A DNA stretch of 64,000 bases from the NCBI GenBank assembly GCA_963735035.1, contig CAVTJJ010000003.1:768001-832000 (forward strand), given 5' to 3'. A program made the position numbers and the translations under genes. The DNA is from an uncultured candidate division Zixibacteria bacterium (lineage in GTDB: Bacteria; Zixibacteria; MSB-5A5; GN15; FEB-12). The first letter of the stretch is position 1, and each line of letters opens with the position of its first letter. The notes under the pieces were generated by a model. That model saw only the letters and a list, made by a program, of their open reading frames with translations. It was not told the DNA's origin and did not search any database. Positions 1,437-22,108 of the stretch are shown here, piece by piece.

Positions 1437-4400
1437 TTATTTCAGGAGCAGCATCTTACGTGTCTCCAGAAATTCGCCTGCCTTGATCCGGTAGAAGTAG
1501 ACACCGCTGGCGTATTGGCTCGCGTTCCAGTCGACCCGGTGATATCCGGCCGGCATCTCACGATCTACGAGGACATCTACCGTCTGGCCAAGAATATTGA
1601 AGATCGTCAGTTTCACCGCATTCGCTTTCGGAAGTGCGAACTCAATCGTGGTTACAGGATTGAACGGGTTGGGGTAGTTCTGCGAAAGCTCGAATCGGGT
1701 CGGGAGGTTCGGGTTGCCGTCCTTGACTGCCAGGCTCACATCCCGGTGAACCATGTCCGCGGCCTGAGCTTTTACCACCTCGTACTCTCCCGGCACGGAG
1801 ATCAACACCCATTCTCCCTTTTCAATCACAGCCGAGCTGTCGAGATCGACCAGACCCACCTTGAGCGTATCCCCATGACGCCCCTGAACGAGATCAAGTC
1901 CCAGTTCCGTGAGCTTGCGAGCAGGCGCAGTTCCCTTCCCGACCAGGCTCAACTGGACGCCTCGCAGTACCATATCGGTCGACAGGAAGAGGCTGGTAGT
2001 GTCGTTGCTGACGGATCGCCACAGGGTGGGCTCGACCGCCGCCATTTTCGCCTGCGGAACGGGTACAGTCTGCGTACAGGAGATCAAATCACGCTGCGAA
2101 ATGAAGAGGTGGTCGACACCGTAGGTTATGTCGCTAATCGTAATGGCGCGCTCCGGATCGGCGTTTAGATTACTCTCGTCGATACACGCCAGTGGGGGGC
2201 AACTGATGAACAGGTGGTCGATAAGAGCTGAGATATCACCGATGGTGCATTCGACCCCGTCCTGGTTGACATCACCACGCACGCCCTGACAGCAGGACGC
2301 AATGGTGAAGCAGTACGGTCCACCCCAGACCGGGTAGGTGTGGCCGGTCCAGTCTCTCCCCGGAAAGTCTCCGTAATACCAGCCCCACGTGTTGCTACCG
2401 TTGGGTAGGTAATCGAAATTGTCAATACAGATCTCCTTGCCGATGTCATCGCATGATACCTGAGTCTCTATATACCAGGCGATTCCCCCGGCCCCGGGCG
2501 GTAGCTTGTAGCCAGCCAAAGGCATAATGGAACCGACAAACGTCACCGAGTCGACCGTTTCGTTATGGTGGATCGAAGTAAAGGTCATGCCGCCCTCCAG
2601 ATACGCCGAGTCCCATACCGGCCCCTCCAAAGCCCATTTCACCACGATTGGATCAAAAGTGGCGCCATCAGGCGACGAAATTGTGAAACCGTTAACTACT
2701 GCCGTGATCGGCTTAGTCTGATCGTTCTGAATGCTCAGTACAAAGCGGACAGTCTGGCCACAGGTAAACTCCGGCCCTGTCGGAGCCAACAATTCCACCG
2801 TCCCGCCGAGCCCGCACGTAGTGTGGGTTGTCTGCACCCAGGGTGTAGTGATATAACCATCCGTCGCCCGTGCCCGCCAGTGATAGACGGTTGCCAGTTC
2901 GCCATCGAAGTTAAGTTTCAGGCTCGGCGACGGGCTATGTTCCACCTGGGTGATGATGTTCTCCATCGCAGAATCACGCGCGAATTGGATATCGTAGTAG
3001 ACCGAATCCTTTTCAGGATCAGTACAACCAGAGAAAGACAAGCCCTCAATGTGTCGATTCCCAGGGTAGTGGGCAGGCGTAAACTGCGGCGTCGACGGTC
3101 CGGCGTTGATGTGTATGAAAAGGTACTTCCAGCTTCCCCAATTAGTGCCGTTGCTTACGTGTACCCGTGCTATATAGTTCGTCCCCCGGGTCAGAGCCGG
3201 CCCGCTGTAGGCAGCCAAGGTATCTACAGACGTTACTTCACCGGTCGTCCAGATACCGCCGCCCTCCCAGGTAGTCGGGAAAGCAGCCAGTTGCAGTTCG
3301 TAGAACTGCTGGGTGCCCACCGTGTCTTTGAAACTCCAGTAGAACGTGGGTGATAATGACATCACGTGATCCTGGACTTCGTCACCAACGTTGATATTCT
3401 CAGCCACCGGCAGGATCTGTGGCGACTGGTAAGGAAAAGCACCTATGTCGCCACGCGTTCCATCGGCATCCACAAACTCCGCAGCGGGATCGCCAGTGTC
3501 AATGCAGGGCGAGCCCGCCGTCAAATGGAAATCACTGTGTGCTGAGTCCGCAAACATTGGATCAGCCGATATACTCCTAGTACCGGGAGTAACCCCGAAG
3601 TAGTTGCCGTCGGCGTTCATATAAGCATCGTTGTAATTGCACGCGACGTTAACATTGGAGAGCACTGCCCAACCTGGGCCGTTGTTGGCAAAAATGTTGT
3701 TTCTTACGTCAACATCGTTCCCGTTCGATTGGGTGAAAGCCAGACATGACCCGCCATAACGGCCGGGAGTGTAGACGGCCTGGACGGTGGTCTGATTGCC
3801 GACGAACGTATTGCCGTGGATCTTCAATTTCAAAGAGTTGCTTGCCCTGATCGCCCCACCCAGATTTGCCTTGTTGTTAGTAAAGAGATTATTTTTGATA
3901 GTGCAATTCTTGGTGTCACTGAGACAGATCCCACCGCCGTATCCACTGAGTCCCAGGTTATTGAACCAGTTGGATTCCACGAGAGCTGAACCGTTTGCGA
4001 TGCGTATACCGCCGCCGCTCGTGCCGTTGTTGCAACTGTTCAGGAATTGATTGTTCCGCACGACTACCTGATCGGTGGTACTGTCGACATACAAAGGCGT
4101 TCTGCCGCAATTAGTGAAGATGCATCCTTCTACTAAGGCCGCCGCGCCATTCAATAGGATTCCCTGGCCGCCGGGGTTTTGAAAGGTAAGATTGCTTATT
4201 GTGGAAACTCCTCGGCTGCCGTTCAATGTAATCAGGGCAGACTGCCAATAAGTAGTACTGGTGATAATCGTAACATCGGGCCCGTCACTGGACGTGAGGA
4301 CAACTACCTTTCCGTCGAAATCAATATTCTCCCGGTAGGTTCCCGGCCCAACAATGACCGAATCGCCGTCAAACGCCGCCGCTACAGCCGCAGATATAGT

Positions 4401-7400
4401 CGCATGATCATCCGGCACCCTTCTTCGACCGGTGAGGCTCACCCGCACAACGGCCGAACTCCAATCACCCCATTCTGTCCCGTCATGCACCCGCAGACGC
4501 AGGAAATATGTCGTGAGATCGACAAGAGCTGGTCCACCATACACCAGATTCCCATCTCCGGATGCAACCGGACCGGAAGTCCAGATCGGGGTGGCCAGCC
4601 ACAGAGGATCTGTTCCCAATTGTGCCTCGTGCTGATTCTGAGTTGTCGATAACGGATCGAGATAGGTCCAGGTGATGGTCGGGGTACCGCTCTTCAGCAC
4701 ACCGTAGGCGTTGACCGGTTCGAGAGCAATATTTGCGGCAATCGGATAATCGACCGGTGAGCCGCTGACGGCCCCGATATCACTGCGACTGCCGTCCGGA
4801 TCGTTGTGGGATGGATCCGGGTCCCCGGCATTCATACACGGCGAATCAAATCGAAGAGCGAAAGTATTGCCAGCCGTGTCAACTATCAGCGGATTGACCG
4901 ACATACCGCCGGGAATTTCCGTAAACCCGACTCGATTGGACAACTGGTTTCCGTAGGCATTGTTATATCGCACATTGGCGGAATAGGTGGATATAATCCC
5001 CGCTCCTTTGTTGAATATGACCAGATTATTGTAATAGTTTCCAGCACAACCAATGCTAAGTCCGTCACCTTCGGTACCGTATATTGTGTTGTTAACAACT
5101 TCCACATTACCGGACTGCGTCTGCAGACCCTGCACGTTGCGGGCAAAGATGTTGTTTCGGGCGGAGCCTGTTCCGGCCCGTAGTCTGGCCGCCAGAGTGC
5201 TTCCCGTGACGTAGTTGCTGTCCAGGCGGTATTGCCCCAGGAGAACAACTGCCCGGTTGTTGTCGACGAATTCGCAGTGCACAGAACTCACGGATTTCGC
5301 AAAACCGCTGTTCAGGGCGGTTCCCGTTAGACCTACGAATCGGCAATCACGAATATCGCAACTTGCGCTGTCTCGTAATAGGATTCCGCAACTGCCATCA
5401 GTGAAGGTCAGTCCAACAATGGTCAATTGGGAGCTCCCTGGCAGAACTGTGATTGTCGCCTCTGCCCCTGGCATCGATTGGAGGATAGTTGAAGCGGCCT
5501 CCCCCGTGGACATCAGGACCAGTCCTTCACACTCCGCTATCACGCTCTCACGATATGTTCCCGGCTCGATGAATATCGTATCACCTTCCACGGCATAATC
5601 AAACGCATCATGAATCGAAGTCATGTCACTGGGGACATGGATCGACCCGGCCCCCTTGAACCGACCGCTTATTTCGTACCAGTCGCCCCATTGGCTACCA
5701 TTGTACAGGCGAATGCGAAAATAGTAGATTACGAAGCTACTCAAAGGCGGACCACTGTAGAAGATATCCGTTTCTGACCCGCTTATCGGCCCCTGGTCCC
5801 ACACCTCGGCTACGTCCCAATATGAATCAGTGCCGACCTGAATCTGGTACATTTGCTGGGTCGTGGGTTGATCATCGACATATTCCCAGCGCAGCTCCGG
5901 AACCAGAGTATAGAATGATACTATCTCGAAGTTGTGAACAAACGGCATCGGCAGTGCTTCGAACCATAAAGCGCCAACATCATTGCGACTGCCGTCCGGA
6001 TCGTTGTAAGACGAATCGGGATCGCCGACGTCGACGGCCGCCGATCCTGGCAGAAGACGTGCATCCCCCAGAGCCGGGTTGGCCAGCATGGGATCGCCGA
6101 AGATCTGCACGCTGCTGTCATAACCCAGGTGGTCTTCCCAGGGAGCCCCGTTTTCCCAGAACAGGTTATGTGAAACATGAGCCAATTCCAGGTCAATCCG
6201 GTAGTCTGACTCGCAGTCAGCGATTGCCTCATAGCGACAGTGTGCAAAGATGTTGTTGTAGACATTGATATCGAAATATTCCGAACTGGCGGAATAGTAT
6301 TCGTCGTTGGTAATGGCCCGGTCATTTCCCCAGAATGTGTTATTGGTTATGTATGCCGAACTGCCCGGTGCTAGAACAGGGATGCGAATAGCGCTCTCGC
6401 CTCCATTGTTAATAAAGAGATTACGCTTGATGTCGATGCGCCGGTTATCGTTGCCCAGAATTACGATAGTTGACGGAGAGACCTGCTGCCAAGTGAAATC
6501 GGGATCGATGTGGATCTGGTTGTCACGGAGGATATTATCTCTGATCGTAGCTGCGCTGTATTGTATGAGGACGGCTGGCGGTCCGGATGCTCCGGTAATG
6601 GTTAGTCCGGCGATTTCGGGCACACCGTAGCTATTGTATCCATATTGGATGCTGATAATCGGCAAATCCAGGGATGCCGGGAGGAGAATAGTATTTTCCG
6701 CTCCCGTTTCGCCCAGGACCAACACCTGACGGTTGATGGCGATTTCGAGGTTCTCTTTGTATTCGCCCGGCGCGATCAGCACAGTATCGCCGGGGAGTGA
6801 CGCATTGATAGCAGCTTGTATCGTGGGGTACTCTGAGGGCACTCGTAGCGCCAGCGAGCCGCCACGGATCATGATGATCGATTGCAGCGGGTTGATCAGG
6901 CCGGAGCCCAACTGACCCGCCAGATCCGGATTGAGATGATCGAGGCTCGTAGCCGTCGAAATAATGGCGTCAATCACTTCCTGGCGCGTGGCCGAAGGTT
7001 TATAGGTCCAGAGCAGGGCCGCCTGGGCCGCCACGAACGGTGCGGCGAAACTGGTTCCTCCCCACCAGGCGTAACTGTCGCCGAGATACGGACCATAGAT
7101 ACCGGTGCCGGGGGCGCAAACATCAATGTTGGAACCGTAGCAGGAGAAATCGGCCAGAAGATCGAGCGTATCGACCGCGGCCACACCCAAAACGTTGGGA
7201 TCCGAAGCTGGGAAATGAGCGCCCGGCGTATGGCCATTGCCTGCCGCGGCCACGATCAGAACCTGATGTTCGGCCGCATAGGCCGCCGCCGCCGCGATCG
7301 CGTCATGGCGTTCGATCGTAACCAGGCTGAGATTGATTACCTTGCATCCGTCATTCACCGCCTGGATGATCGCCTCTGCCAGAACATATGCATTGCCCAG

Positions 7401-8045
7401 ACCATCAAGACCGGTGACGCGATAGACATAGATGTCCGCTTCGGGGGCGACCAATCTGGTGACACCCGCCACGAAAGTACCGTGACCACTGTTAGCTCCG
7501 CCTTCTTCGTCGAAGGGATCGTTGTCGGAATCGACGTAGTCACGGCGTTTGACTACATTATCCTTGAGAAGGGGATGATTGTAATTCACACCGCCGTCGA
7601 GCACCGCCACGCGTACCCCGGCACCGGTGGCCTGAACATGCACCTGATCGAGACCGAGGTGGGTTGCCGCTTCCTGGTTGCGGAAATCTCCTGTGCGCTG
7701 ATTATCCGATACCGGCAGGCTTCCCTGTACACCCTTGAGAGGATCGACCAGGAAATTCGGCTGGCAAAACGCCACCCCAGGCATCGCGGCCACAACCGCC
7801 GCCAGAGAGTCCAGATCGGGACCGGTCGGCAGCGAAAGCAGGTATATCTCCAATTGGCTCAACTGCTGCTCGACCGTCGCACCGACCGATGAGACAACTT
7901 CATCTACGGAATGGCCTGGCTGCATCTTGAGAACCAGCGAACCATCCTCATAGCGCGTTGAGCCGTTGACCATACCGCTGAGTGAGATACCCAGGATCAA
8001 CACGCCTATTGTGATTCTCAAGACTGTAGTTCGGGGACTGCCCAT
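1437..8045 (-). CDS. Giant secreted S8 (subtilisin-like) peptidase with three beta-helix/Ig-FN3-like modules, dockerin-like domain and C-terminal secretion/FlgD-like domain
   Basis: Triad motifs VAVLDGG / GHGTFVAG / GTSFAAPFVA; three VPSxxxTIxxAI...GDP..DxDGxRxDxGA modules; CCQGVRGDVNQDG..IGDISALIDHLF dockerin; LSQNYPNPFNP..TRKMLLLK tail; ATG at 8045 preceded by AAGGAGG and followed by a signal peptide. Confidence 0.9.
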   Translation of the reverse strand: MGSPRTTVLRITIGVLILGISLSGMVNGSTRYEDGSLVLKMQPGHSVDEVVSSVGATVEQQLSQLEIYLLSLPTGPDLDSLAAVVAAMPGVAFCQPNFLVDPLKGVQGSLPVSDNQRTGDFRNQEAATHLGLDQVHVQATGAGVRVAVLDGGVNYNHPLLKDNVVKRRDYVDSDNDPFDEEGGANSGHGTFVAGVTRLVAPEADIYVYRVTGLDGLGNAYVLAEAIIQAVNDGCKVINLSLVTIERHDAIAAAAAYAAEHQVLIVAAAGNGHTPGAHFPASDPNVLGVAAVDTLDLLADFSCYGSNIDVCAPGTGIYGPYLGDSYAWWGGTSFAAPFVAAQAALLWTYKPSATRQEVIDAIISTATSLDHLNPDLAGQLGSGLINPLQSIIMIRGGSLALRVPSEYPTIQAAINASLPGDTVLIAPGEYKENLEIAINRQVLVLGETGAENTILLPASLDLPIISIQYGYNSYGVPEIAGLTITGASGPPAVLIQYSAATIRDNILRDNQIHIDPDFTWQQVSPSTIVILGNDNRRIDIKRNLFINNGGESAIRIPVLAPGSSAYITNNTFWGNDRAITNDEYYSASSEYFDINVYNNIFAHCRYEAIADCESDYRIDLELAHVSHNLFWENGAPWEDHLGYDSSVQIFGDPMLANPALGDARLLPGSAAVDVGDPDSSYNDPDGSRNDVGALWFEALPMPFVHNFEIVSFYTLVPELRWEYVDDQPTTQQMYQIQVGTDSYWDVAEVWDQGPISGSETDIFYSGPPLSSFVIYYFRIRLYNGSQWGDWYEISGRFKGAGSIHVPSDMTSIHDAFDYAVEGDTIFIEPGTYRESVIAECEGLVLMSTGEAASTILQSMPGAEATITVLPGSSQLTIVGLTFTDGSCGILLRDSASCDIRDCRFVGLTGTALNSGFAKSVSSVHCEFVDNNRAVVLLGQYRLDSNYVTGSTLAARLRAGTGSARNNIFARNVQGLQTQSGNVEVVNNTIYGTEGDGLSIGCAGNYYNNLVIFNKGAGIISTYSANVRYNNAYGNQLSNRVGFTEIPGGMSVNPLIVDTAGNTFALRFDSPCMNAGDPDPSHNDPDGSRSDIGAVSGSPVDYPIAANIALEPVNAYGVLKSGTPTITWTYLDPLSTTQNQHEAQLGTDPLWLATPIWTSGPVASGDGNLVYGGPALVDLTTYFLRLRVHDGTEWGDWSSAVVRVSLTGRRRVPDDHATISAAVAAAFDGDSVIVGPGTYRENIDFDGKVVVLTSSDGPDVTIITSTTYWQSALITLNGSRGVSTISNLTFQNPGGQGILLNGAAALVEGCIFTNCGRTPLYVDSTTDQVVVRNNQFLNSCNNGTSGGGIRIANGSALVESNWFNNLGLSGYGGGICLSDTKNCTIKNNLFTNNKANLGGAIRASNSLKLKIHGNTFVGNQTTVQAVYTPGRYGGSCLAFTQSNGNDVDVRNNIFANNGPGWAVLSNVNVACNYNDAYMNADGNYFGVTPGTRSISADPMFADSAHSDFHLTAGSPCIDTGDPAAEFVDADGTRGDIGAFPYQSPQILPVAENINVGDEVQDHVMSLSPTFYWSFKDTVGTQQFYELQLAAFPTTWEGGGIWTTGEVTSVDTLAAYSGPALTRGTNYIARVHVSNGTNWGSWKYLFIHINAGPSTPQFTPAHYPGNRHIEGLSFSGCTDPEKDSVYYDIQFARDSAMENIITQVEHSPSPSLKLNFDGELATVYHWRARATDGYITTPWVQTTHTTCGLGGTVELLAPTGPEFTCGQTVRFVLSIQNDQTKPITAVVNGFTISSPDGATFDPIVVKWALEGPVWDSAYLEGGMTFTSIHHNETVDSVTFVGSIMPLAGYKLPPGAGGIAWYIETQVSCDDIGKEICIDNFDYLPNGSNTWGWYYGDFPGRDWTGHTYPVWGGPYCFTIASCCQGVRGDVNQDGVECTIGDISALIDHLFISCPPLACIDESNLNADPERAITISDITYGVDHLFISQRDLISCTQTVPVPQAKMAAVEPTLWRSVSNDTTSLFLSTDMVLRGVQLSLVGKGTAPARKLTELGLDLVQGRHGDTLKVGLVDLDSSAVIEKGEWVLISVPGEYEVVKAQAADMVHRDVSLAVKDGNPNLPTRFELSQNYPNPFNPVTTIEFALPKANAVKLTIFNILGQTVDVLVDREMPAGYHRVDWNASQYASGVYFYRIKAGEFLETRKMLLLK

Positions 8046-8055
8046 ATCTTCCTCC

Positions 8056-10785
8056 TTATCCTGCTCCGTAAACGGAGAAGGATGCCCAATCATAGACCGA
8101 TGGATATTTCTGTCTGACGGTAAGCGATGCTTCACGCACAGCGTCGCATACACTCTGACCGCTCAAAATCGATTTGTAATAATGACCGATCCACACCGCG
8201 GCCGAATTGTCGGATACCGCCCAATGGCTGCCTACCACGTTGCGGCTGCCCATCTCCAGAAGACAACGCACAAGCCCGGTGGCTTCCTCACCCGGCGCCA
8301 CCGACTGGTGGGCTGTCCGACAGGCAGCCAACGTCACCAGGCCAACCCGGCAGTTCTTCAACCTGAAATCGGCCCCGAACAACGGACCGTCCTGAAGTTG
8401 AAGTGAAGAATAGAACGGATTGTCGGTTCGGTAGCGGGCATGTCCTGTGAAATGCCACATGGCCCACTCGCCCTCAGAGGGCCAGTCCTCGCGTTGACAC
8501 GGATCGTGCAGCTCCAATTCGACCGAGGCACGAAGCAGCCCGGCAAGTTCTTCGTGGGTGGGGACTAGATTTGTCTTGTCGCCCACGAAGACACCGACCC
8601 GTCCCTGCGGCGAAACGTCAAGAGTCCGCGCGTACAGGTGATGTTGCACACTCGGCGAAATGATCAAGCTGTGATCAAGAATCACAGCACGCTTCCCGTG
8701 TATGAATGCCGACCAGGGCAGAGTGGATAAGAGTCCGTCCGGCACAATAAGTACCTTGCGGTGTTCGTGTCCAATTTCGAGCGGGCTCCAGAAGAAATCG
8801 CCCATTTGGGTAAAGAGACGGCGCTCGTCATCCAGATCAGCCGACGTGCACCCGGAAGCTGACAGCAATGACCGATTGAGCTGCACCTGCCATGCGCCGG
8901 ACCATTCAGGAAGCAGTCGTCGCGCACCACGATATCGACACACCCGCGATGAACCGCGCTCATGGACAATTGCCACTATGTCTTCCTTCTGAAGACAGAA
9001 CTGCACCACCGGGTACTCGGCCGACACAGCCTGCAGGCCGGAACGAAATCGCCTTAACCATGGTTCGAGACGTCGCGGCTGTTGCTCCATCATGGCGAGG
9101 TTGTCGCGCACTTCGCGCTGGAGACGGCGCAACGAAGGATGTGACGCGAAACCATCGCCTGATCGCGTGCCGGGAACCGGACCGATCTGCTCGGCCAGAG
9201 CCGATACTTGACGCGCCAGTCGGGAAAGCGATTCCTCAGCCTGAGTACGCTTGGCCGCCGCAGCGAACGACGCGCCGGAGGCCGCCCAAATTCCAACCGT
9301 CTTGAAACGGTCGATCCAGGTGGTTGCGCACACCGGATTGTCGTCTATCGTGTGGGCTATTAATCGCTCATAGGGATCGGTCCGACCATGCGTGAAGGTG
9401 GAGCGGAGTTCCACCGGTGGCAGTTTGGCCCGCACCAAATCAAGCACTTCCGCCGCTCGTGTCCAGTGACCCATGGCGCTGGCGAAAGCACCGCGCTTGT
9501 ATTCACGGTCTCCCTGTATTGTCTGATAATGCGCCAGAAGATACGGCACACTCTTTACGGCGGGATTGCGGCTAAGCCGGCGCCGGGCCGTGTCATCATC
9601 CGGCATATCCGTGAGCAGTTGCAGATCGCTTATAGCGGCCCAGAGAGGGAGTTGACGGTCGGCTAACTTGCTGCGAATCTGTCTCAACCTTGACGGCTTC
9701 GCCGCCTGGCCGGGGGCAACCTGGACTTCGAAAAGTCGGACAGCCGTCCGGAACTCCTTGTTCTTTTCCAGAGAGAATTCGCGTCGCGCCCGCCTCAAGG
9801 CGCGGCTAACCTCGGCCCCGCGGCCGAGCACATGGGCAGATCGAGCCCGAAAGAAAGCCGCTTTGCCCGCTTCATAATGCAGGCCCAGGCTATGCGAACG
9901 GCGCTCCGCCTCTCGTGCTGCACTCAGGGCATCCGCAAAGAGATTCAGTCCAAGGTACACTTCGGCGCGATCTAGTACACACAGCAGCACACCCTTGTTC
10001 TGCCGCACCTGCCGATACTTCTCTTCACACTCGTACAGCAGACGCAGCGCGACATGATAGTCGTTGCTCAACACTGCCAGCCAGGCCAGACCGTAGTTGC
10101 TCTCGTTGACAAACAGATCGTGAAGCTGGCGGCCGAAATTCTCCCGCGCCTTCTCGTAGTATTTCCGGGCTTCATCGAACTCGAAGAGCTGGACCAGGGT
10201 GTTGGCCAGATTGTAGTAGCACAATCCCAGCACCAGTTCGTTCCCGCTCCCCCGCTCGAGATGCCGACGGGCCGTCTCGTAGTTGCGGCGTGCTTCACGG
10301 TGACGGTCCTGCCGATGCAAGAGATTGCCGTAATTGATACGGGTCTTGGCTACCTGGTCCAGGTCCCCGAGTTTTTGAAAAGTAACCATGGCCATACGGG
10401 CCCGACGTCGCGCCACCACCGGGCGTCCCAGATACATATAAACATCTATCAAAATCTTGTCGATTTGGGCGCGATTGAAGGGGCTTCGGACAACCAGCGC
10501 GCGAGCTTCCTGATAAGCCGCCTCTGCTTCCGGATATTTCCCGGAACAAAGACTGGTCCAGCCGAGGCACCTTAGCGCGATCTGTAACGGCATTTCGGAC
10601 TGGGCGCGGGTGAGCTTGACGAACTTCTTCGCCATCGCGTGTGCCCGGGGGATCGATCGTTGGGTTTCCGCCCGAACCAGGCGATCACACGCCGTGGTCA
10701 ATTCATGAGGGTCTATTCCGTCAGCGTGACCGGATTTGAGAAATCTCCTGGCCGCCGCCTCAGAACTGCGCCGCTCTACTACCAC
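8056..10785 (-). CDS. TPR-repeat CHAT-domain (caspase-like, clan CD) protease, copy 1
   Basis: N-terminal TPR helices (NYGNLLH, YNLANTL); CHAT motifs VLIVPDGLLSTLPW, WHFTGHA (His), VTLAACRT (Cys), VVGSHWAVSD, WASFSVYG; no signal peptide. Confidence 0.92.
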   Translation of the reverse strand: MVVERRSSEAAARRFLKSGHADGIDPHELTTACDRLVRAETQRSIPRAHAMAKKFVKLTRAQSEMPLQIALRCLGWTSLCSGKYPEAEAAYQEARALVVRSPFNRAQIDKILIDVYMYLGRPVVARRRARMAMVTFQKLGDLDQVAKTRINYGNLLHRQDRHREARRNYETARRHLERGSGNELVLGLCYYNLANTLVQLFEFDEARKYYEKARENFGRQLHDLFVNESNYGLAWLAVLSNDYHVALRLLYECEEKYRQVRQNKGVLLCVLDRAEVYLGLNLFADALSAAREAERRSHSLGLHYEAGKAAFFRARSAHVLGRGAEVSRALRRARREFSLEKNKEFRTAVRLFEVQVAPGQAAKPSRLRQIRSKLADRQLPLWAAISDLQLLTDMPDDDTARRRLSRNPAVKSVPYLLAHYQTIQGDREYKRGAFASAMGHWTRAAEVLDLVRAKLPPVELRSTFTHGRTDPYERLIAHTIDDNPVCATTWIDRFKTVGIWAASGASFAAAAKRTQAEESLSRLARQVSALAEQIGPVPGTRSGDGFASHPSLRRLQREVRDNLAMMEQQPRRLEPWLRRFRSGLQAVSAEYPVVQFCLQKEDIVAIVHERGSSRVCRYRGARRLLPEWSGAWQVQLNRSLLSASGCTSADLDDERRLFTQMGDFFWSPLEIGHEHRKVLIVPDGLLSTLPWSAFIHGKRAVILDHSLIISPSVQHHLYARTLDVSPQGRVGVFVGDKTNLVPTHEELAGLLRASVELELHDPCQREDWPSEGEWAMWHFTGHARYRTDNPFYSSLQLQDGPLFGADFRLKNCRVGLVTLAACRTAHQSVAPGEEATGLVRCLLEMGSRNVVGSHWAVSDNSAAVWIGHYYKSILSGQSVCDAVREASLTVRQKYPSVYDWASFSVYGAG

Positions 10786-11342
10786 GGAAGTTTCTCCAGG
10801 CTGATCCGGAGATCCGGCGAAAGCAATTCAAGTTTGCGAGGTGGCCGCAACGAAGACCAGACGAAACACTCGCCACAACCAACCGGCAGTTTGCGGCGTC
10901 CCGCCTGAAGAACGAACCGGCTGGTGATGGCGCCGTTTTCATAAACTCGGATCGCCAGGTCCCAGCCCTCCAGTTGCCGGTTGGCCACGAATTCTATTTC
11001 AAATGGTGCCACCGCAAAACGAACTCGTCGTTCCACCCCGAAGGCAGCCTGACGGACAGCCAGCGCCGGACGACTGATCCAGGTATCGAAGACTCGTGAG
11101 GCCGTCACTGAACGGGCGGGCCGACGAGAGCCCACCAGCAACGGGATGGCTTTGTGGCGCCGCAATAACTCACTCGGCAGTTTCGATTCGAGTTGCCCTG
11201 ATTCAGCCCCAAGCCATTTCAGAACGTCAAAAAGTGAGCGACATGAATTGCAGCTTTGGAGGTGTTCGGCGAACGGCACTTGACCCGTACGTGCTGCCAT
11301 AATCAAATCTTCTCTTTCCGGATGGTCATTGTTTGGCTTCAT
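10779..11342 (-). CDS. Putative soluble zinc-binding anti-sigma factor, copy 1
   Basis: HLQSCNSC (HxxxCxxC) near the N-terminus; directly downstream of an ECF sigma; overlaps the CHAT start; paralog at 17384. Confidence 0.75.
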   Translation of the reverse strand: MKPNNDHPEREDLIMAARTGQVPFAEHLQSCNSCRSLFDVLKWLGAESGQLESKLPSELLRRHKAIPLLVGSRRPARSVTASRVFDTWISRPALAVRQAAFGVERRVRFAVAPFEIEFVANRQLEGWDLAIRVYENGAITSRFVLQAGRRKLPVGCGECFVWSSLRPPRKLELLSPDLRISLEKLPW

Positions 11343-11424
11343 GTGGTTCCGTCATCCAGGACAATCGGAGAACAAACGTTCCTACGTAACGACTGCGTCA
11401 CCGACTTGCCCGTCTTGTGTGTAT

Positions 11425-11451
11425 AGTTCCAACCGTCATGAATCTTCGTAC
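11425..11451 (-). promoter_or_regulatory. Putative ECF-sigma-1 promoter GTACGA-N14-TGGAACT upstream of anti-sigma 1
   Basis: Same two boxes with identical spacing recur at 12162-12188 (+); spans the stop codon of the sigma gene. Confidence 0.55.
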
Positions 11452-12026
11452 CAGTTTTCTCCCATTTCTTTCAGAATCTTCCGCAATTTGGATAGACATC
11501 GCTGTCGCATCGGACCGATGCTATTAGTGGGGATGTTGAAACGCCGGGCGATTTCTCCATAAGATTGTTCACCAGGCGAGAAGAACAGCGCCGTCAGTAG
11601 ATCGCGGCAACCGGCATCCATCTGTGCCAGCGCCTTATCCAGCAAGGCGCGTCGCTGCAGGAGGATCACCTGCTGATCGGGTGGTAGTGGGTGGGGAGTA
11701 TGTGGGGCTTTGCTCTCCACGCGCTGAGTGCTCGCCTGCTTGCGAAGGATTCGCATGGCCCGGCGATAAGCGGTCCCGGACAACCAGCCGGGCAACTTCT
11801 GCCAATCATGAATTCGGTGACGCGAAACATAGAGGGCTACCCAGGTTTGCTGGGCGCAGTCTTCGGCATCGTGGTCATCCAATCCGTAGCGACGTGCTAC
11901 CGAGTAGACCAGAGTCGCATAGAGATCGACTAATTCCTCCCACGCGGCATGATCACCGGCCAGTACGCGTAACCATATGTCTCTTAGCTCGGTAGGCATA
12001 GACGGAGTAAATGGCCCGACCGCCAA
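11436..12026 (-). CDS. ECF RNA polymerase sigma factor, copy 1
   Basis: AWEELVDLY..LVYSVARR..DAEDCAQQTWVAL (region 2), WLSGTAYR, SYGEIARRFNIPTNSIGPMRQRCLSKLR (region 4). Confidence 0.93.
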   Translation of the reverse strand: MAVGPFTPSMPTELRDIWLRVLAGDHAAWEELVDLYATLVYSVARRYGLDDHDAEDCAQQTWVALYVSRHRIHDWQKLPGWLSGTAYRRAMRILRKQASTQRVESKAPHTPHPLPPDQQVILLQRRALLDKALAQMDAGCRDLLTALFFSPGEQSYGEIARRFNIPTNSIGPMRQRCLSKLRKILKEMGENWYEDS

Positions 12027-14427: not shown

Positions 14428-14449
14428 TATGTCCTCAAGACTGAGTTTA

Positions 14450-14499
14450 TGTAACATTTGAGCTACTGTAAGTCTATATACGTTGTCGGAAAATGTCAA
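14450..14499 (-). promoter_or_regulatory. Sigma70-type promoter of hipBA (TTGACA-N17-TAGACT) with operator-like imperfect palindrome at the start site
   Basis: -35 at 14499-14494 and -10 at 14476-14471; GTAGCTCAAATGTTACA near 14450-14466 resembles TGTAGCTTATATACTACA at about 14548-14565. Confidence 0.7.
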
Positions 14500-15308: not shown

Positions 15309-16199
15309 TCAGATATCTAAGTCACCGGTGTACATATCAGTATGTTTCGGATCCACCTTCAGCTTGGACGCTGCCGCCCAGAGCTTCATGTTTACCTCAG
15401 CGTACGTGGATATTTCTTCGTTATAGATCAGTCCCTGGTTCTGGGCGGCGTACAGGAAATAGTAGGTCCAGGCGCCGTTCTGCAGGTCGGGAGCGTCATA
15501 AGAGTACTTTGATGTCGACGCCGTGGAGAGCACAGTGCCGGTCATGCAGTCAGCGTGGAAATCGCCGATCACACAGGCGTCGAGATTGATGGTCTTCTTG
15601 GTGCAGTTGGCGGAATTGAGATACCCCATTACATACGAATGAGTCAGGTAAAACAGGTCGCGTGAAATGATGCTCGATCCGCCAGACGGACGGACTTTAG
15701 TGCCGTGCCCAGAGTAGAAGAAGGCAATCTCGTCACCCGGAGCCGCCGCATCCCGCAACCAGATCAGGCCGGCCTGAATGTTGGCCGCCGAGGCGCTATA
15801 ATCTACGTCGCTGCGAATCGTGAATCCCTCAGCAGTCAGGTATTCAATGACATCGCGGGCGTCGTCGTCGCAGTAACTCAGGTCGTTGGCCGTGCCGTCG
15901 TAGTCGGAAATCCCGATGATATAGGCATACTTGTGAGCCGGGCTCGGATTGGGATCGATGGCCAGGCCGCCCGGATCAGTCAGCCGGTCATTCGTCTCTA
16001 CGGCAGTGCCAAACTTGGTGTAGGCGAGTTGCACCGCTTCGGGGCGGGTGTCGATGAACTCAGGCCGCTGAACCAGGGTACCTGAGTTGGTCTGGTTTCC
16101 ACCGGGGCCGGTCACCGTCGGCTCTTGTGAGCACCCAAAGAGAGCCGTGAGGACACAGCACAGGCTAAGCAATATTAATAGCCTTTTCATGTAAGACAT
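15309..16199 (-). CDS. Caspase-family (peptidase C14, metacaspase-like) lipoprotein
   Basis: Lipobox LFGC; AYIIGISDY..DLSYCDDDA; FFYSGHG (His); INLDAC (Cys); NGAWTYYFL. Confidence 0.88.
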   Translation of the reverse strand: MSYMKRLLILLSLCCVLTALFGCSQEPTVTGPGGNQTNSGTLVQRPEFIDTRPEAVQLAYTKFGTAVETNDRLTDPGGLAIDPNPSPAHKYAYIIGISDYDGTANDLSYCDDDARDVIEYLTAEGFTIRSDVDYSASAANIQAGLIWLRDAAAPGDEIAFFYSGHGTKVRPSGGSSIISRDLFYLTHSYVMGYLNSANCTKKTINLDACVIGDFHADCMTGTVLSTASTSKYSYDAPDLQNGAWTYYFLYAAQNQGLIYNEEISTYAEVNMKLWAAASKLKVDPKHTDMYTGDLDI

Positions 16200-16790: not shown

Positions 16791-17387
16791 ATGACTTCTA
16801 AAGAGATGAGTCGCACCGATACCGAGTTGTGGCACGCCATCCTGGCCGGCGAACCAGCAGCGTGGAAGGAGCTGGTCGTCCGTTATCGGTCTCTCGTCTA
16901 TGCCACGTGCACCTACCTTGGCCTCTCTCAATCTGAGGCCGGGGATGCCTTCCAACAGACCTGGCTTCTTCTCTTTCAGAAACGGGGGCAGATTCGTGAC
17001 CCCCAACGGCTATCGGCCTGGCTCGTAACCACCGCCAGGCGTGAGGCCCTTAGGTTGAAGAACCGCTCCGATGCCGTATCACTTGACTCAGCGGCGGCAG
17101 AAATCCCCAACCTGGAACCAGGCCCGGAGCAGGAGCTTCTGTTGATCGAACGGCAGGCTGTGATAGAAACTGCTATCGAGCAACTCGACAACCCCTGCCG
17201 GGAACTAGTGCGTGCCTTCTTTTTCGCACCCGCCGACCTTTCCTACGAGGACATCGCCCGTCAACTCGGGTATTCCCCCAACACCCTTGGAGCCAAACGA
17301 CAACGATGTCTGGCCCGGCTCAGAAGAATCCTCGAGAAACTTGGCTTTCTGGATGAACGAAAATCGGAAAAGGAACCTCTGCTATGA
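16791..17387 (+). CDS. ECF RNA polymerase sigma factor, copy 2
   Basis: AWKELVVRYRSLVY..AGDAFQQTWLLL, WLVTTARRE, SYEDIARQLGYSPNTLGAKRQRCLARLR; start could be 16791 or 16806. Confidence 0.93.
   Translation: MTSKEMSRTDTELWHAILAGEPAAWKELVVRYRSLVYATCTYLGLSQSEAGDAFQQTWLLLFQKRGQIRDPQRLSAWLVTTARREALRLKNRSDAVSLDSAAAEIPNLEPGPEQELLLIERQAVIETAIEQLDNPCRELVRAFFFAPADLSYEDIARQLGYSPNTLGAKRQRCLARLRRILEKLGFLDERKSEKEPLL
17354..17381 (+). promoter_or_regulatory. Putative ECF-sigma-2 promoter TGAACGAAAATC-N11-CTCTG
   Basis: Recurs at 22217-22245; sits at the 3' end of the sigma gene like the copy-1 motif. Confidence 0.55.
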
Positions 17388-17971
17388 CGAAGCAAAGGAG
17401 GTCTGGTACGGAAAGACATTTGACACGCAAGGAACTGCTCTCGGCTGCCAGGGACGAACAGGTGCCGACCGATCATCTCAGCCAGTGCGCCGAGTGTCGG
17501 GAGTCGGTGTCGCTCCTCAGATCGTTCCAGATGGCTGGCCGAACGCCTTTACCCGAGCCGCCGCTGGCATGGATCGAGCGAGCGGCGAAGATCCCGGAAA
17601 GTTCATGGCGCTCCCGGATTCTGGCTCAAGTAAAGGGTGTCATCACATTCGATTCCTGGCTTCAACCGTACCCGGTTGGAGTGCGCGGCCAGGCCAGCTC
17701 CAATGAACGGCGAGTCTGCTGTGAAGCTGGTCCCTATCTTGTTGATCTTCGAGCCGAGAAACACGTCGACGGCTGGAGAATGGTGGCTCAACTCTCCGGC
17801 GAAAACGCCGAGACGGCCAGATTGATTGACGGCGCTCAAATTGTCCCGGCCGACCCCGACGCAATATTTCAATGGTCAGCGACACACCCCCCGTCGGCCC
17901 TGTCAATCCAGGTCGGCGAGAAATGCATCCTGTTCCCTAAATTGTCATGGAAACGTCCTCGCAAAACATAG
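17384..17971 (+). CDS. Putative soluble zinc-binding anti-sigma factor, copy 2
   Basis: HLSQCAEC (HxxxCxxC); FDSWLQPYPVGVRG aligns with FDTWISRPALAVRQ of copy 1; no transmembrane helix. Confidence 0.75.
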   Translation: MTKQRRSGTERHLTRKELLSAARDEQVPTDHLSQCAECRESVSLLRSFQMAGRTPLPEPPLAWIERAAKIPESSWRSRILAQVKGVITFDSWLQPYPVGVRGQASSNERRVCCEAGPYLVDLRAEKHVDGWRMVAQLSGENAETARLIDGAQIVPADPDAIFQWSATHPPSALSIQVGEKCILFPKLSWKRPRKT

Positions 17972-20694
17972 CCCGGAGATTTCTCTCTACGGGTCGAACG
18001 ACGACCGTCCCAGAGGCGGAGCTTACGACCGCCTGTGTCAGTTTGATCCTTGCTGTGTCCCGGAAATCTTTCGTGCGCTCACTGGAACTGAGCGAGAAGT
18101 TTGTTGGGTTCGCTAAGAGTCATGATCAGGGGATGCGTCTGATGGCCTATCGTGTCCTCGGGCAAATGAATCACATGGCCGGAAAACACACCGAGGCTCT
18201 CGCGGCCTACAGTCACGCGCGACGTCTCGCCGCCCATGATGTCAGGGCACGAGCCGGTATGGACAGGATGCTGATCGACGTCTACATGTACCTTGGCCGT
18301 TATTCGGACGCCCGGCGTGCGGCCACCCGAGCAATGAAAGCCTACAAGCAGGCTGGCCTGGAAGGCGACTGGCACAAAACTCGTGTCAATTATGCCAACC
18401 TGTTGCATCGTCTGGATCGCCATGTCGATGCTGGTCGGATATACCGTGAGGCGGCTGACTATTTCGAGCGGGCGGCTGATCCGTTGGCTACGGCCCGTTG
18501 CCTGTACAACCTTGCCAATTGTCTGGTGCAACAGTTTGAAATAGCGGAAGCCGAAAGAGACTATGCCCAAGCCCGGGAAATATACGAGCGCGAGTCTTAC
18601 ATGCTGGACGCCTGCGACGTGCGCTACGGTCAGGCCTGGCTCAAGATGCTCAGAGGGGAACTACATCTGGCCCTCCTCGAGTTAAACGAATGTTCGCGGA
18701 TCTATCAAAGTGCCGGAAATCGTCGCGGCGTGGCGCTCTGCCAGCTTGATCTTGCCGAAGTGTCTTTGGGACTCGGTCTCTATTCGGATGCTCTCGACTA
18801 CGCTCGCAAATCGTTCCGACAATTTGCACATCTGAATCTTCGCTACGAACAAGCCAAATCGGCTCTCTTTCGGGGCCAAGCCGCTCTGGCCGTGGGCAAG
18901 AACAAGGAAGCTGCCCGGGCGGCTGAATGGGCCAAAGCAGGTTTCGACGCTGAACAAAACCGTGGTTTTGCCGGCGTAGTCCAGCTTTTGTTTGCCGCTT
19001 TGGAGGAAGGATCTGATCATGCGGCTTCACTTCGGCTGCAACGTGCCGGCCGACTCTTTCAACGGAGCCAACTACCTCTTTGGGAAGCTGTATGCGACAT
19101 GCGCTCAGCCCATGATGAGTCGCGCTCGGACCGGGCACTGCAGCGCCTGGCGCGGAACAAGGCTGCCCATGTGGTACCACATATATATGCAGGTTGGCAG
19201 ACCATCCAGGGCGACCGACACCAGGCCGCCGGCCACGGCGCGCAAGCACGAAAATGCTGGACGCGAGCGGCAGACCGACTCGACGCGGTCCGGAGCCAAC
19301 TCCCCCCTATAGAGCTACGGAGCGCCTACGGACGCTCCCTACCTTCACCACACTCCAGACTGGTGGCTGCGGAGGCGGTTCGTGCTCCCCTCCGCGCTGC
19401 CGTCTGGTCTGAACGCCTGAAGACCGCAGGTGTATGGGCTCCGGTTTCGTCGGAGGCGCTTAACTCCCACAGTCGCCGGAGAATTAACGCCAGCCTCGAA
19501 GCATTGTCGTCACAGGTTGCCGGCCTGATGCACCACTTGCCGGGACAGCAGGGCGAACGCGGAATGACTACCGTCGGATCCAGTCGATCGCTTCATCGCC
19601 TCCAGCGTCAACTTCGACTTCAGTTCTCAGAAATGGAAACGACACCGGCTGCCCAAACCGATGACCATGGCGATCTGGATCGATTGATAGCATCGACTTC
19701 GAAACGTCTGCCGATCGTGCAGTTCCATGTAGCCGACAATGACATTTACGTCTTTGTACATCAGCACGGGCGAACGACCCTGTGTACCATTCGGGACGGT
19801 CGTCGCCGAATTGCGTACGCGATGGAGCGATGGCGCTTCTTCATGGAGCGACAGCTATTTGCATCTTTCCCGGGAAGGCAGATCCTGGGGCAAAAGGAAG
19901 ATACTTTCTGGGCTGAGCTGGGGAGTTGGCTCTGGCATCCGCTAATGGTGGATTCGGCGGCTGACAATGTCTTGATTGTGGCCGAAGGCGAGCTGGCCAA
20001 CCTGCCCTGGCAGGCGCTGTCGTTTCACGGAAAACTCCTGGCCGAGCAACATCATATCACTCTCGCGCCCAGCATCCGTCATTTTGTGGCGGCTGAAAGA
20101 GTTAGGGTATCCGATCCGTCGGTTCAATTCTTTCGGAGTGACGTTGGCAGCTTGCCTAATACAGAGGCAGAAGCTTCAATCCTGCGGAGACTGGCCGGTG
20201 ATGCGTTGACCGAACATTTTCCCTCGCGCCGGACCGACTGGCCCACCGAAGGGGAAAGTCGCTTATGGCATTTTGCCGGTCACGCGGTGCTCCGCCACGA
20301 AAACCCTTTCTATTCCTACTTGCTTCAATCGGATGGTCCACTTTTTGCGGCTGATTTTCGCATGCGCCGCTGTCAAGTCAGCCTTGCCACGCTGGCCGCT
20401 TGCAGGACTGGCGAACAGGTGGCCTTGCCAGGTGATGAATCAACTGGCCTGGTGCGCTCCCTTCTTGAGATGGGGGCCCGCAATGTTGTGGCAGGACGCT
20501 GGCCGGTATCGGATGAAAGCGCCTCACATTGGATGACTGATTTCTATGGCAGATACTTTCGAGATGATGATCTTTTCACCGCGGCCCGTGAAGCAACCCT
20601 CGGGGTGAGAGAGAAGTACCCCTCGGCCTTTCATTGGGCTGCTTTCGCGGTTTTTGGCGCCGCCAGAACGGGAGGCCCATATGTGGCCCATTAG
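17947..20694 (+). CDS. TPR-repeat CHAT-domain protease, copy 2
   Basis: TPR helices; WHFAGHA (His), ATLAACRTG (Cys), VVAGRWPVSD, HWAAFAVFG; colinear with the 8056-10785 product. Confidence 0.92.
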   Translation: METSSQNIARRFLSTGRTTTVPEAELTTACVSLILAVSRKSFVRSLELSEKFVGFAKSHDQGMRLMAYRVLGQMNHMAGKHTEALAAYSHARRLAAHDVRARAGMDRMLIDVYMYLGRYSDARRAATRAMKAYKQAGLEGDWHKTRVNYANLLHRLDRHVDAGRIYREAADYFERAADPLATARCLYNLANCLVQQFEIAEAERDYAQAREIYERESYMLDACDVRYGQAWLKMLRGELHLALLELNECSRIYQSAGNRRGVALCQLDLAEVSLGLGLYSDALDYARKSFRQFAHLNLRYEQAKSALFRGQAALAVGKNKEAARAAEWAKAGFDAEQNRGFAGVVQLLFAALEEGSDHAASLRLQRAGRLFQRSQLPLWEAVCDMRSAHDESRSDRALQRLARNKAAHVVPHIYAGWQTIQGDRHQAAGHGAQARKCWTRAADRLDAVRSQLPPIELRSAYGRSLPSPHSRLVAAEAVRAPLRAAVWSERLKTAGVWAPVSSEALNSHSRRRINASLEALSSQVAGLMHHLPGQQGERGMTTVGSSRSLHRLQRQLRLQFSEMETTPAAQTDDHGDLDRLIASTSKRLPIVQFHVADNDIYVFVHQHGRTTLCTIRDGRRRIAYAMERWRFFMERQLFASFPGRQILGQKEDTFWAELGSWLWHPLMVDSAADNVLIVAEGELANLPWQALSFHGKLLAEQHHITLAPSIRHFVAAERVRVSDPSVQFFRSDVGSLPNTEAEASILRRLAGDALTEHFPSRRTDWPTEGESRLWHFAGHAVLRHENPFYSYLLQSDGPLFAADFRMRRCQVSLATLAACRTGEQVALPGDESTGLVRSLLEMGARNVVAGRWPVSDESASHWMTDFYGRYFRDDDLFTAAREATLGVREKYPSAFHWAAFAVFGAARTGGPYVAH

Positions 20695-22108
20695 GCAACT
20701 GTTAACATCGCTCACCTTCATCCTGGTATTGCTGCTCCCGCCCGCGGCGACAGCACAGGGGGGGCAGGGGCCAGGCAAGGGTGGCTATAAGCCCGCTGAG
20801 ATCGTATGCCGCCTCGACTCAACTACTACAATAGATGAAATCAACACTCTTTTCGGTACGACCGTTCGCGGACACCAAACCCAGACCGACTGCTTCTTGT
20901 TGTTCGTCAGTGGCGGGCGTAATGCTGACAGCTTAGCTGAGATTATCGCCCAGACTCCCGGAGTCGTCTACTGCAGCCCCAATTATTATCTAATGGCTCC
21001 TGAGGGCCTTCAGGGTAGTTCTCCATTTCCTGATCTGGAAGTGATTGGCGACATGGATGGCCAGCTCGCTGCCGAGCAGCTTCAACTCACGCAGGTGCAT
21101 CAGGTCGCAACGGGAACCGGCATGAAAGTGGCCGTGATTGACGGCGGCGTGAACTTAAAGCATCCCTATTTTGCTCTTCATTCGGGAACTCTTGTTTCTG
21201 TCTATGATTACATCGACAACGACGAAGTGGCCTTCGACGAGCCCGGAGGGTCGAATTCCGGCCACGGCACGTTTGTCGCCGGAATTGTTCGTCTGGTTGC
21301 CCCTGACGCCGATTTGTACATATATCGAGTGCTAGATACAGCCGGCATGGGTGACGGCTTCTCTATCGCGCAGGCCGTCCTGCAGGCCATATCCGACGGT
21401 TGCCAGGTTATAAATCTGAGTCTGGGTATGTCCGGCTTGCACGACGGGCTCGACGATGCTCTCAAACTGGCACACCAAAACGAAATAATGGTGGTCGCAG
21501 CCGCCGGCAATGATTCGACCAGCGCCTTGAACACGTTCCCCTTCCCGGCAATTCGGGAATACTGCATAGCCGTAGCGGCTCTCGACTCCGTTCTGCTCAA
21601 AGCCGATTTCTCCAACTACGGCACACCAATTGACATCTGTGCTCCCGGAACACGCGTGTACTCTCCTTACCTTGACGAACTCTATGCCTGGTGGGACGGC
21701 ACGAGCTTCTCGACGGCGTTCGTCACCGGGCTGGCTACGCTGTTAAGACAGCAGCATCCGGTGGCCTCGTGGGATGATCTATATGGCTCGATCCTCAACT
21801 CGGCTAAGAACGTCGATACTCTCAATCCGACCTACGCCGGACTGCTGGGTTCCGGCCAGATCGACCTGCTCAAATCGCTTGGGGCGTCGGGTGAAATCAA
21901 ACGCGGGGATTTGAACTCAGATGGCACTGTGAGTATCGGTGACATATGTGTACTAATAACCTACCTATACATCGATCCCTCAATTTCCAATCCGGGAATT
22001 GCAGGCGATGTCAATTGTGATAATTCACTGAGCATAGGTGACATATCGATGCTTGTGGCTCACCTTTTCATAGACGATCAACCGCTCTGTTCGGGCGATT
22101 TGCCTTAG
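20681..22108 (+). CDS. Secreted S8 peptidase with C-terminal dockerin-like domain
   Basis: Signal peptide; VAVIDGG / GHGTFVAG / GTSFSTAFVTG; RGDLNSDGTVSIGDI..GDVNCDNSLSIGDI; GGAGG before ATG 20681. Confidence 0.9.
   Translation: MWPIRQLLTSLTFILVLLLPPAATAQGGQGPGKGGYKPAEIVCRLDSTTTIDEINTLFGTTVRGHQTQTDCFLLFVSGGRNADSLAEIIAQTPGVVYCSPNYYLMAPEGLQGSSPFPDLEVIGDMDGQLAAEQLQLTQVHQVATGTGMKVAVIDGGVNLKHPYFALHSGTLVSVYDYIDNDEVAFDEPGGSNSGHGTFVAGIVRLVAPDADLYIYRVLDTAGMGDGFSIAQAVLQAISDGCQVINLSLGMSGLHDGLDDALKLAHQNEIMVVAAAGNDSTSALNTFPFPAIREYCIAVAALDSVLLKADFSNYGTPIDICAPGTRVYSPYLDELYAWWDGTSFSTAFVTGLATLLRQQHPVASWDDLYGSILNSAKNVDTLNPTYAGLLGSGQIDLLKSLGASGEIKRGDLNSDGTVSIGDICVLITYLYIDPSISNPGIAGDVNCDNSLSIGDISMLVAHLFIDDQPLCSGDLP

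Follow-up and report, generated by a model that had tools for sequence, protein, structure and literature searches.

How an ECF-type sigma factor might be set free by a caspase-like protease where no CRISPR array stands nearby is the question raised by a 64,000-nucleotide stretch of DNA from an uncultured candidate division Zixibacteria bacterium (GTDB MSB-5A5; GN15; FEB-12), namely positions 768,001-832,000 of the forward strand of contig CAVTJJ010000003.1 in assembly GCA_963735035.1. This whole stretch is called the window below, and all positions are counted from its first letter (position 1); the genome to which it belongs has a size of 3.6 Mb and is 96.9% complete. According to open reading frame calls, the window carries two divergent paralogous cassettes, A and B, each encoding an ECF sigma factor, a small soluble protein with an HxxxCxxC motif, a cytoplasmic TPR-CHAT protease and a secreted S8 subtilase. 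Our analyses establish this cassette as a real unit that is conserved without CRISPR. We furthermore propose that each cassette is a self-contained sigma/inhibitor switch gated by the CHAT protease, with the exported subtilase and a lipoprotein as its output, a reading that we regard as about an even bet.

Two paralogous cassettes and their conservation

Cassette B lies on the plus strand and comprises the ECF-type sigma factor B (198 residues, 16791..17387), the soluble anti-sigma-like protein B (195 residues, 17384..17971), the TPR-CHAT protease B (915 residues, 17947..20694) and the dockerin-bearing S8 subtilase B (475 residues, 20681..22108, within an open reading frame at 20654-22108). 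The same order is read on the minus strand in cassette A, which consists of sigma factor A (196 residues, 11436..12026), the soluble anti-sigma-like protein A (187 residues, 10779..11342), the TPR-CHAT protease A (909 residues, 8056..10785) and the giant S8 subtilase A (1437..8045, within an open reading frame at 1437-8153). The likely start of subtilase A is position 8045, behind an AAGGAGG site, which yields a protein of about 2202 residues, and that of subtilase B is the ATG at 20681, behind a good ribosome-binding site; once these starts are taken, both subtilases possess signal peptides. Both sigma factors consist of a sigma-2 and a sigma-4 domain only, in about 200 residues, as is typical of ECF (group 4) sigma factors: sigma A matches Sigma70_r2 (E 2e-11), r4 weakly, and TIGR02937 sigma70-ECF with 69 bits (cut-off 42.9), while sigma B matches Sigma70_r2 (3e-9), r4_2 (1e-4) and TIGR02937 with 79 bits. 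CHAT (PF12770) was detected together with TPRs at E 3e-32 (A) and 2e-32 (B), and Peptidase_S8 (PF00082) at 9e-43 (A) and 2e-39 (B).

An earlier note on this DNA, made from its letters alone, had described two divergent copies of one four-gene order, and the open reading frame positions and Pfam matches agree with that description. Its remark that most junctions overlap or nearly touch holds for all of them save one: sigma B and small protein B overlap by 4 nucleotides, small protein and CHAT by 25 (B) and 7 (A), CHAT B and subtilase B by 14 given the start at 20681, and CHAT A is separated from subtilase A by 10 nucleotides given the start at 8045, whereas sigma A and small protein A stand 93 nucleotides apart. 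The catalytic residues, which had been called intact in both copies of both proteases, are so indeed, as the CHAT dyad (H779 and C819 in copy B) is invariant in 21 of 21 aligned relatives and the Asp, His and Ser motifs of S8 are found in both copies in the A/B alignment. The paralogues share 41% identity in the sigma factor, 28% in the small protein (E 7e-20), 40% over 907 residues in CHAT and 45% in the S8 domain; because the pairs are only 28-45% identical, the duplication must be old.

A survey of gene neighbourhoods, which the same note had proposed, found the order conserved. Of 41 close relatives, 18 possess homologues of the small protein, and in the 20 neighbourhoods of such homologues the sigma and CHAT genes adjoin the small-protein gene without exception (20/20), all four genes being present in 19 and the S8 subtilase missing from one (L028). 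Scanning the CHAT alignment against one genome per species yielded 142 confirmed relatives, from which 64 distinct loci were kept, several of them coinciding with small-protein loci; with scan patterns that were family-specific, all 64 come from Zixibacteria-type metagenome-assembled genomes, some labelled Ignavibacteria or GN15. Among the loci that could be evaluated, sigma and small protein precede CHAT in 51 of 51 (an automatic count of 49 had missed L086 and L090, which proved to be artefacts of open reading frame calling), and S8 is located downstream in 56 of 57, with L091 as the exception. An overlap between the small-protein gene and the CHAT gene exists in 68 of 69 pairs and measures 25 nucleotides in 33 of them. 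In addition, 12 more weakly matching loci represent a more divergent third type with the same four genes (8 colinear, 2 cut by a contig end, 2 rearranged); in L102 and L109 the CHAT gene lies on the opposite strand and the genes are still clustered, and in L107, one of the 8 colinear loci, an N-run joins the small-protein and CHAT frames. Gene fusions were considered as evidence of contact and discarded, given that the 367-residue sigma plus small-protein frame of L084 and the 1058-residue small-protein plus CHAT frame of L107 both hold X runs derived from scaffold N.

Across the phylum, the small-protein profile matches 108 of 285 genomes (E ≤1e-8) and 79 of the 198 high-quality ones, with 1-4 copies per genome and a concentration in four families (57/107, 20/33, 17/21 and 5/14); it has no match in either of the two other genomes of the window's genus, one of which is 100% complete. 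Searched against 1.84 billion representative proteins, the profile retrieved 154 clusters at E ≤1e-30, 234 at 1e-10 and 1328 at 0.001. Look-ups for 10 clusters of the family returned no names, and Atlas neighbours of the small protein in Acidobacteriota are unconfirmed leads only. There are no tandem repeats in the window, and no Cas1 was found in the whole 96.9%-complete genome (Cas7-11 itself was not searched); together with the gene unit being kept across relatives, these results bear out the CRISPR-independence that had been claimed for the cassette at the outset.

The genome also harbours a third group on the same theme outside the window (L097, G000:C3:934000-950000), composed of a weak sigma-like gene, a 285-residue zf-HC2 protein, an S8 subtilase and, about 2.7 kb off, a divergent 1056-residue TPR-CHAT. 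A radical SAM/SPASM gene adjoins this divergent TPR-CHAT group.

A predicted anti-sigma partner and its neighbouring protease

The two small proteins carry the HxxxCxxC stretches HLQSCNSC (A) and HLSQCAEC (B), and a hydrophobic stretch is absent from both (maximum Kyte-Doolittle values over 19 residues of 0.55 and 0.61), in line with the transmembrane helix having been reported as lacking. As in zinc anti-sigma factors, a fourth ligand is situated upstream of the motif, and the resulting set H12, H31, C35 and C38 is shared by the two window copies and found whole in 25 of the 31 members aligned, HxxxCxxC itself being found in 27. When a profile of the 31 members was searched against all PDB chains (E ≤10), the sole match was RsiW, on the zinc motif, with E 0.03, and the top Foldseek row for the small protein is ChrR in complex with SigE (E 0.024). 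Weaker support for an anti-sigma identity comes from the Atlas cluster linked to the small protein, 27% of whose members contain zf-HC2.

Co-folding of sigma B with small protein B, each supplied with its own alignment, gave interface scores (ipSAE) of 0.79, 0.76 and 0.79 in three runs, versus 0.00 in each of three controls, and the runs share at least 78% of their contacts, with a partner pLDDT (predicted local distance difference test) of at least 76. Of 157 solved complexes, 116 attain the tool's mark, as do 2 of 215 mismatched pairs, a calibration that holds only roughly with the alignments supplied here. In the predicted interface, residues 12-74 of the small protein face residues 20-62 and 118-178 of sigma, so that the former would sit between sigma domains 2 and 4 in the manner of zinc anti-sigma factors, with the beta-sandwich left free. 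The AlphaFold model of small protein B (pLDDT 82) is made up of N-terminal helices (15-69) followed by a C-terminal beta-sandwich (81-183). The picture of a small protein whose N-terminal anti-sigma domain would, by prediction, grip domains 2 and 4 of sigma, and which continues into a C-terminal beta-sandwich, is new here. The earlier note had taken the HxxxCxxC protein for an anti-sigma factor, and the co-fold scores along with the RsiW and ChrR matches corroborate this in silico.

The C-terminal half appears to have a job of its own. Eight residues (D90, W92, R101, R109, R110, W164, P170 and W189) do not vary in any of the 31 members, not even in the four that have lost all zinc ligands, which suggests a second function beyond the zinc-motif part. 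R101 lies within a conserved VGVRG loop between two strands, modelled with lower confidence. For the fold of this domain, Foldseek returned no match at E ≤0.001, and a specific fold assignment was rejected, as the best VIA-align hits (Z 7.1) fall on generic immunoglobulin-like (Ig-like) sandwiches and within the tool's usual background.

The CHAT proteins combine a His-Cys dyad with a caspase-like fold, as do clan CD proteases. In the model of CHAT B (pLDDT 86, predicted template modelling score 0.82) a long TPR superhelix precedes the caspase-like domain, and its structural matches in Foldseek are separase (E 2.6e-17, template modelling score 0.56 on the query), Csx29 (2.4e-14) and DdvA (2.9e-12). 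By sequence profile, DdvA (8rot_B, E 1.3e-5) is the closest CHAT protein of solved structure, followed by Csx29 (about 1e-4). Separase, the best structural match, likewise consists of a TPR-like superhelix and a caspase-like domain, cleaves behind Arg residues and is kept in check by a pseudosubstrate, yet it is eukaryotic and its biology is unrelated. Neither a signal peptide nor a hydrophobic helix was detected in the CHAT proteins, which therefore are expected to act in the cytoplasm, the same compartment as the sigma/anti-sigma pair.

With both partners in view, one may ask whether the small protein is itself the sensor, i.e. a redox- or zinc-sensing anti-sigma of the ChrR/RsrA kind, so that CHAT, subtilase and lipoprotein would all be regulated output and the CHAT substrate would lie elsewhere. 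The H-H-C-C ligands in 25 of the 31 members and the ChrR match at the top of the Foldseek rows are both compatible with such a sensor, and CHAT and S8 are positioned downstream of a promoter motif described below, hence in the presumed regulon. Nevertheless, four of the 31 members do without all four ligands and yet keep every invariant C-terminal residue, and the near-universal overlap of small-protein and CHAT genes, with linkage kept even in rearranged loci, points to a complex more than to a target that simply shares the regulation. We consider a self-sensing anti-sigma unlikely, and prefer the reading in which the CHAT protease acts upon the small protein.

Promoter motifs, exported products and the proposed circuit

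Both subtilases appear to be exported. Subtilase A comprises a signal peptide, a fervidolysin-like prodomain, the S8 domain, a beta-helix (Beta_helix), Ig-like and dockerin-like domains and a C-terminal sorting domain of the type IX secretion system (T9SS; Por_Secre_tail 2e-9), while subtilase B carries Dockerin_1 (4e-8) behind its signal peptide and S8 domain. A fifth conserved member of cassette B was overlooked in the earlier note and is new here, namely the gene for a DUF5666 lipoprotein (22322..23527, plus strand; 401 residues, DUF5666 E 2e-12, signal peptide, lipobox FAGC). In 46 of the 97 loci that were searched, homologues of it come 3' of S8, in some cases as two tandem copies, and none is present in the listed A-type loci. 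Between S8 B and the lipoprotein gene stands an intrinsic terminator (22141..22170, plus strand) with a 12-pair stem, 9 pairs of which are G-C, followed by TTTTT. The subtilase had been put forward as a possible output, and this fits the data: S8 closes an operon with a strong terminator behind it, and an ECF-type motif is located at the start of the small-protein gene.

Upstream of the DUF5666 genes, the motif TG(A/T)ACG(A/G)AA, 13-14 nucleotides, CTCTGT was detected in 42 of 47 non-redundant regions, 72-116 nucleotides before the estimated start in all but one; to judge by its letters it has the shape of an ECF promoter, with an AAC-type -35 element, the usual spacing and a short -10 element. 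From 43 sites in other genomes a matrix was derived and run over both strands of the 3.6 Mb genome, and its top two matches both fall in cassette B. The genome's best match, at 29.1 bits, lies 5' of the lipoprotein gene (22216..22248, plus strand), and the second, at 24.0 bits, lies in the 3' end of sigma B (17353..17385, plus strand; TGAACGAAA, spacer, CTCTGC) and was not itself part of the matrix. Three shuffled genomes peak at 21.9, 20.8 and 22.7 bits, and the scan gave no other match in the genome above chance; a third window match at 15168 (minus strand, 19.6-19.7 bits), between the C14 and HipB-like genes, was dismissed as chance, being within the shuffled range and having no gene within 600 nucleotides downstream. 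At 15 bits or more, the sigma-end site is present in 33 of the 41 non-redundant B-type loci, and 4 of 4 additional B-type loci in which CHAT is incomplete have it too; for comparison, it was found in 1 of 15 loci of type A and in 0 of 175 windows used as controls. The candidate promoters within the sigma-gene 3' end and before the lipoprotein gene are new here. The B-type motif is also observed before a divergent S8-like gene of 600-660 residues upstream of sigma (L018, L057, L058, L073, L076 and others), and it recurs 3' of DUF5666 genes in several loci, ahead of further genes.

A-type loci display a related motif with a different -35 element, G(T/G)AC(T/G)wA, located either at the stop codon of sigma or between the sigma and anti-sigma genes, as seen by eye in 11 loci and in the window. 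The window example is a tentative promoter-like motif over the sigma A stop codon (approximately 11421..11453, minus strand), with -35-like GTACGAAG and -10-like ACTATAC. These observations give a hint that promoter usage differs between the two paralogous cassettes.

B-type sigma factors keep a conserved tail beyond domain 4, which is explained by the promoter embedded in the sigma coding sequence. Taken by itself, this tail, along with three Cys that are invariant or nearly so in the sigma alignment (C53, C136 and C173 of sigma B), could also be read as a sign that CHAT acts on sigma itself, or else that it acts on cytoplasmic precursors of the subtilase or the lipoprotein, as proposed for ECF54. 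However, an anti-sigma-like partner that is predicted to bind sigma is present here, and the tail is already accounted for, so that we hold such a target of CHAT to be highly improbable and return to the anti-sigma as the point at which the protease would intervene.

We thus envisage the following scheme. The soluble zinc-type anti-sigma would hold the ECF sigma by placing its N-terminal helices on domains 2 and 4, with its beta-sandwich exposed, and the translationally coupled, cytoplasmic, separase-like TPR-CHAT would serve as the input device, the signal being taken up by the TPR superhelix. On a cytoplasmic signal, CHAT would cut or displace the anti-sigma via the C-terminal domain of the latter, perhaps at the invariant Arg loop, which, by analogy with separase, might be a substrate or a pseudosubstrate of CHAT; for cleavage itself, the cutting of Csx30 by Csx29 serves as the precedent. 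Freed sigma B would then read the promoters in the sigma-gene 3' end and before the DUF5666 gene, and the sigma-end promoter would drive the anti-sigma, CHAT and the secreted subtilase, giving exported subtilase and lipoprotein as the output and negative feedback through newly made anti-sigma. More tentatively, and with rather less confidence than in the switch as such, we suggest a circuit in which the promoter read by sigma lies in the last codons of sigma and the sigma gene stands outside its own regulon, so that active sigma would make anti-sigma, protease and exoprotease and no further sigma, and in which two such circuits with diverged -35 specificity control different subtilases. The old paralogous cassettes, which appear to use different -35 elements, would accordingly act as separate channels for two different exoproteases. 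Of the stand-alone proteolytic switch imagined in the earlier note, the conserved CRISPR-free unit, the anti-sigma (in silico), a CHAT fold of the separase/Csx29/DdvA type and a subtilase suited to be the output have stood, and the proteolytic step is retained as a proposal by analogy.

Several results weigh against this scheme. Pfam, including zf-HC2 (PF13490), yields no family match for either small protein at E ≤0.01, and all four zinc ligands are lost in 4 of the 31 members. The co-fold pass may reflect likeness to well-represented solved sigma/anti-sigma complexes instead of true binding. Upstream of the sigma genes, a single weak match to the motif was found among the loci scanned, and a dyad count and a crude home-made Gibbs sampler, run on 62 non-redundant regions upstream of sigma, gave no convincing motif, the information being near background. 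Furthermore, the -10 part ends 4-11 nucleotides before the small-protein start in the window and in about 10 of the 41 B-type loci; in the window, around 17377-17386, it ends 4 nucleotides before the anti-sigma ATG, and there is no later in-frame start. The internal transcript may be leaderless, or the anti-sigma may not be encoded by it. Finally, it is by position alone that the motif is assigned to the cassette's own sigma, and the A-type motif, recognised by eye alone, is tentative.

A stress or anti-phage defence module with the caspase-like protease as its effector, by analogy with CRISPR type III, CBASS and gasdermin systems, would suit the patchy spread of the family in the phylum and its absence from the two other genomes of the window's genus, the HipA/HipB-like pair and the Peptidase_C14 gene between the cassettes, and the control of a defence island by DdvA/DdvS (described in passages of PMC11506125), but in neither cassette does a PADLOC family match the sigma, the small protein or CHAT, the conserved outputs are an exported subtilase (with T9SS or dockerin module) and a lipoprotein instead of intracellular toxins, no further promoter match in the genome exceeds chance, and the C14 gene accompanies the cassette in just 2 other loci, which leaves this idea with very little credence in our eyes.

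As for the genes in between, a HipA-like kinase (HipA_C E 2e-51) and its helix-turn-helix partner at 12782-14499 (minus strand) resemble a toxin-antitoxin pair. The Peptidase_C14 (caspase-type) gene at 15309-16199 (minus strand) encodes a lipoprotein with lipobox LFGC, and the two other loci in which close homologues adjoin a cassette are L053 and L079. Further along the window, alanyl-tRNA synthetase (27185-29921, minus strand) is represented by two overlapping open reading frames, 28422-29921 and 27185-28504, which could be due to a frameshift, an assembly error or a split gene.

Comparison with known systems

Whether the gene order had already been described was left open in the earlier note, and an answer can be given. 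An ECF sigma in the company of a subtilase and a TPR-CHAT protein has figured in catalogues since 2015, as the context of group ECF54 (Huang et al., 2015; summarised in section 3.3 of PMC8999054 and in the PMC7826278 supplement). According to that supplement, ECF54 is 100% Actinobacteria, with a 'carboxypeptidase regulatory-like' protein at +1, the subtilase at +2 or -1, a CHAT protein with TPRs at +3 or -2, 'no anti-sigma' and the predicted promoter GTATCAG / CTCC, while the PMC7826278 main text, in its account of ECF54, names only a 4Fe-4S protein. The present cassettes share with ECF54 an ECF sigma encoded with subtilase and TPR-CHAT, a likeness of gene context, and the ECF54 promoter resembles the present motifs, GTACGAA or GAACGAA / CTCTGT. 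The loci differ in being of Zixibacteria type, in their order of sigma, anti-sigma-like protein, CHAT and subtilase, and in a +1 protein that is without a Pfam match and contains a zinc anti-sigma domain predicted to bind sigma. The carboxypeptidase regulatory-like domain is a beta-sandwich; if this holds for the +1 protein of ECF54, that protein would resemble the C-terminal half of the +1 protein here.

In type III-E CRISPR systems, as set out in passages of PMC10028731, Csx29 cuts Csx30, the N-terminal domain of which binds and inhibits CASP-sigma, and the process depends on Cas7-11 and target RNA. The parallel lies in a TPR-CHAT protease and a two-domain inhibitor whose N-terminal part binds an ECF-like sigma, which is there released by cleavage in the C-terminal part (PMC10028731, same passages). 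On the other hand, the combination of Cas7-11, array and Csx30 homologue that characterises Craspase was not recovered: the window has no array and the genome no Cas1 (with the limit on Cas7-11 given above), and the small-protein profile, a comparison by sequence only, did not find Csx30 among PDB chains at E ≤10. Moreover, the activating signal here cannot be target RNA, and the output here would be secreted proteins.

DdvA of Myxococcus xanthus is, as described in passages of PMC11506125, one transmembrane polypeptide that joins a zinc anti-sigma domain to a periplasmic TPR-CHAT lacking part of the active site; it is proposed there to cleave itself before RseP acts, and is stated to be the sole characterised anti-sigma with such a domain. 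DdvA/DdvS and the present cassettes thus have in common a zinc anti-sigma domain, a TPR-CHAT module and an ECF sigma in one circuit, whereas here anti-sigma and CHAT are encoded by separate genes, are soluble and cytoplasmic, and have no hydrophobic helix. The pairs ChrR/SigE and RsiW/SigW also feature an HxxxCxxC anti-sigma domain followed by a second domain, although the matches are weak (the E-values of 0.024 and 0.03 given above). The ligands of ChrR, which we take to be H6, H31, C35 and C38, are close to H12, H31, C35 and C38 here; the C-terminal domain, however, is a generic Ig-like sandwich here and not the cupin of ChrR, and unlike RsiW the small protein has no membrane anchor.

The gene combination as such was therefore already catalogued, and the cassette presented here is real, strongly conserved and mechanistically suggestive, with CHAT cleavage as its conjectural step. 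The one demonstrated case of CHAT-driven release of a sigma factor is the CRISPR-bound Csx29/Csx30 pair, with the membrane protein DdvA as a proposed one, and a full-text search, the coverage of which leaves out most subscription journals, found no paper on a soluble stand-alone version. In Zixibacteria, the cassettes would point to regulated secretion of large subtilases, i.e. a control of protein feeding. With the promoter motif and the predicted interface as a starting point, a reporter test in a heterologous host is straightforward. If true, a soluble stand-alone version would be a compact, probably portable signalling module with a defined partner, promoter and output, and would offer a testable mechanism for the ECF54-type neighbourhoods that surveys have listed without an anti-sigma since 2015.

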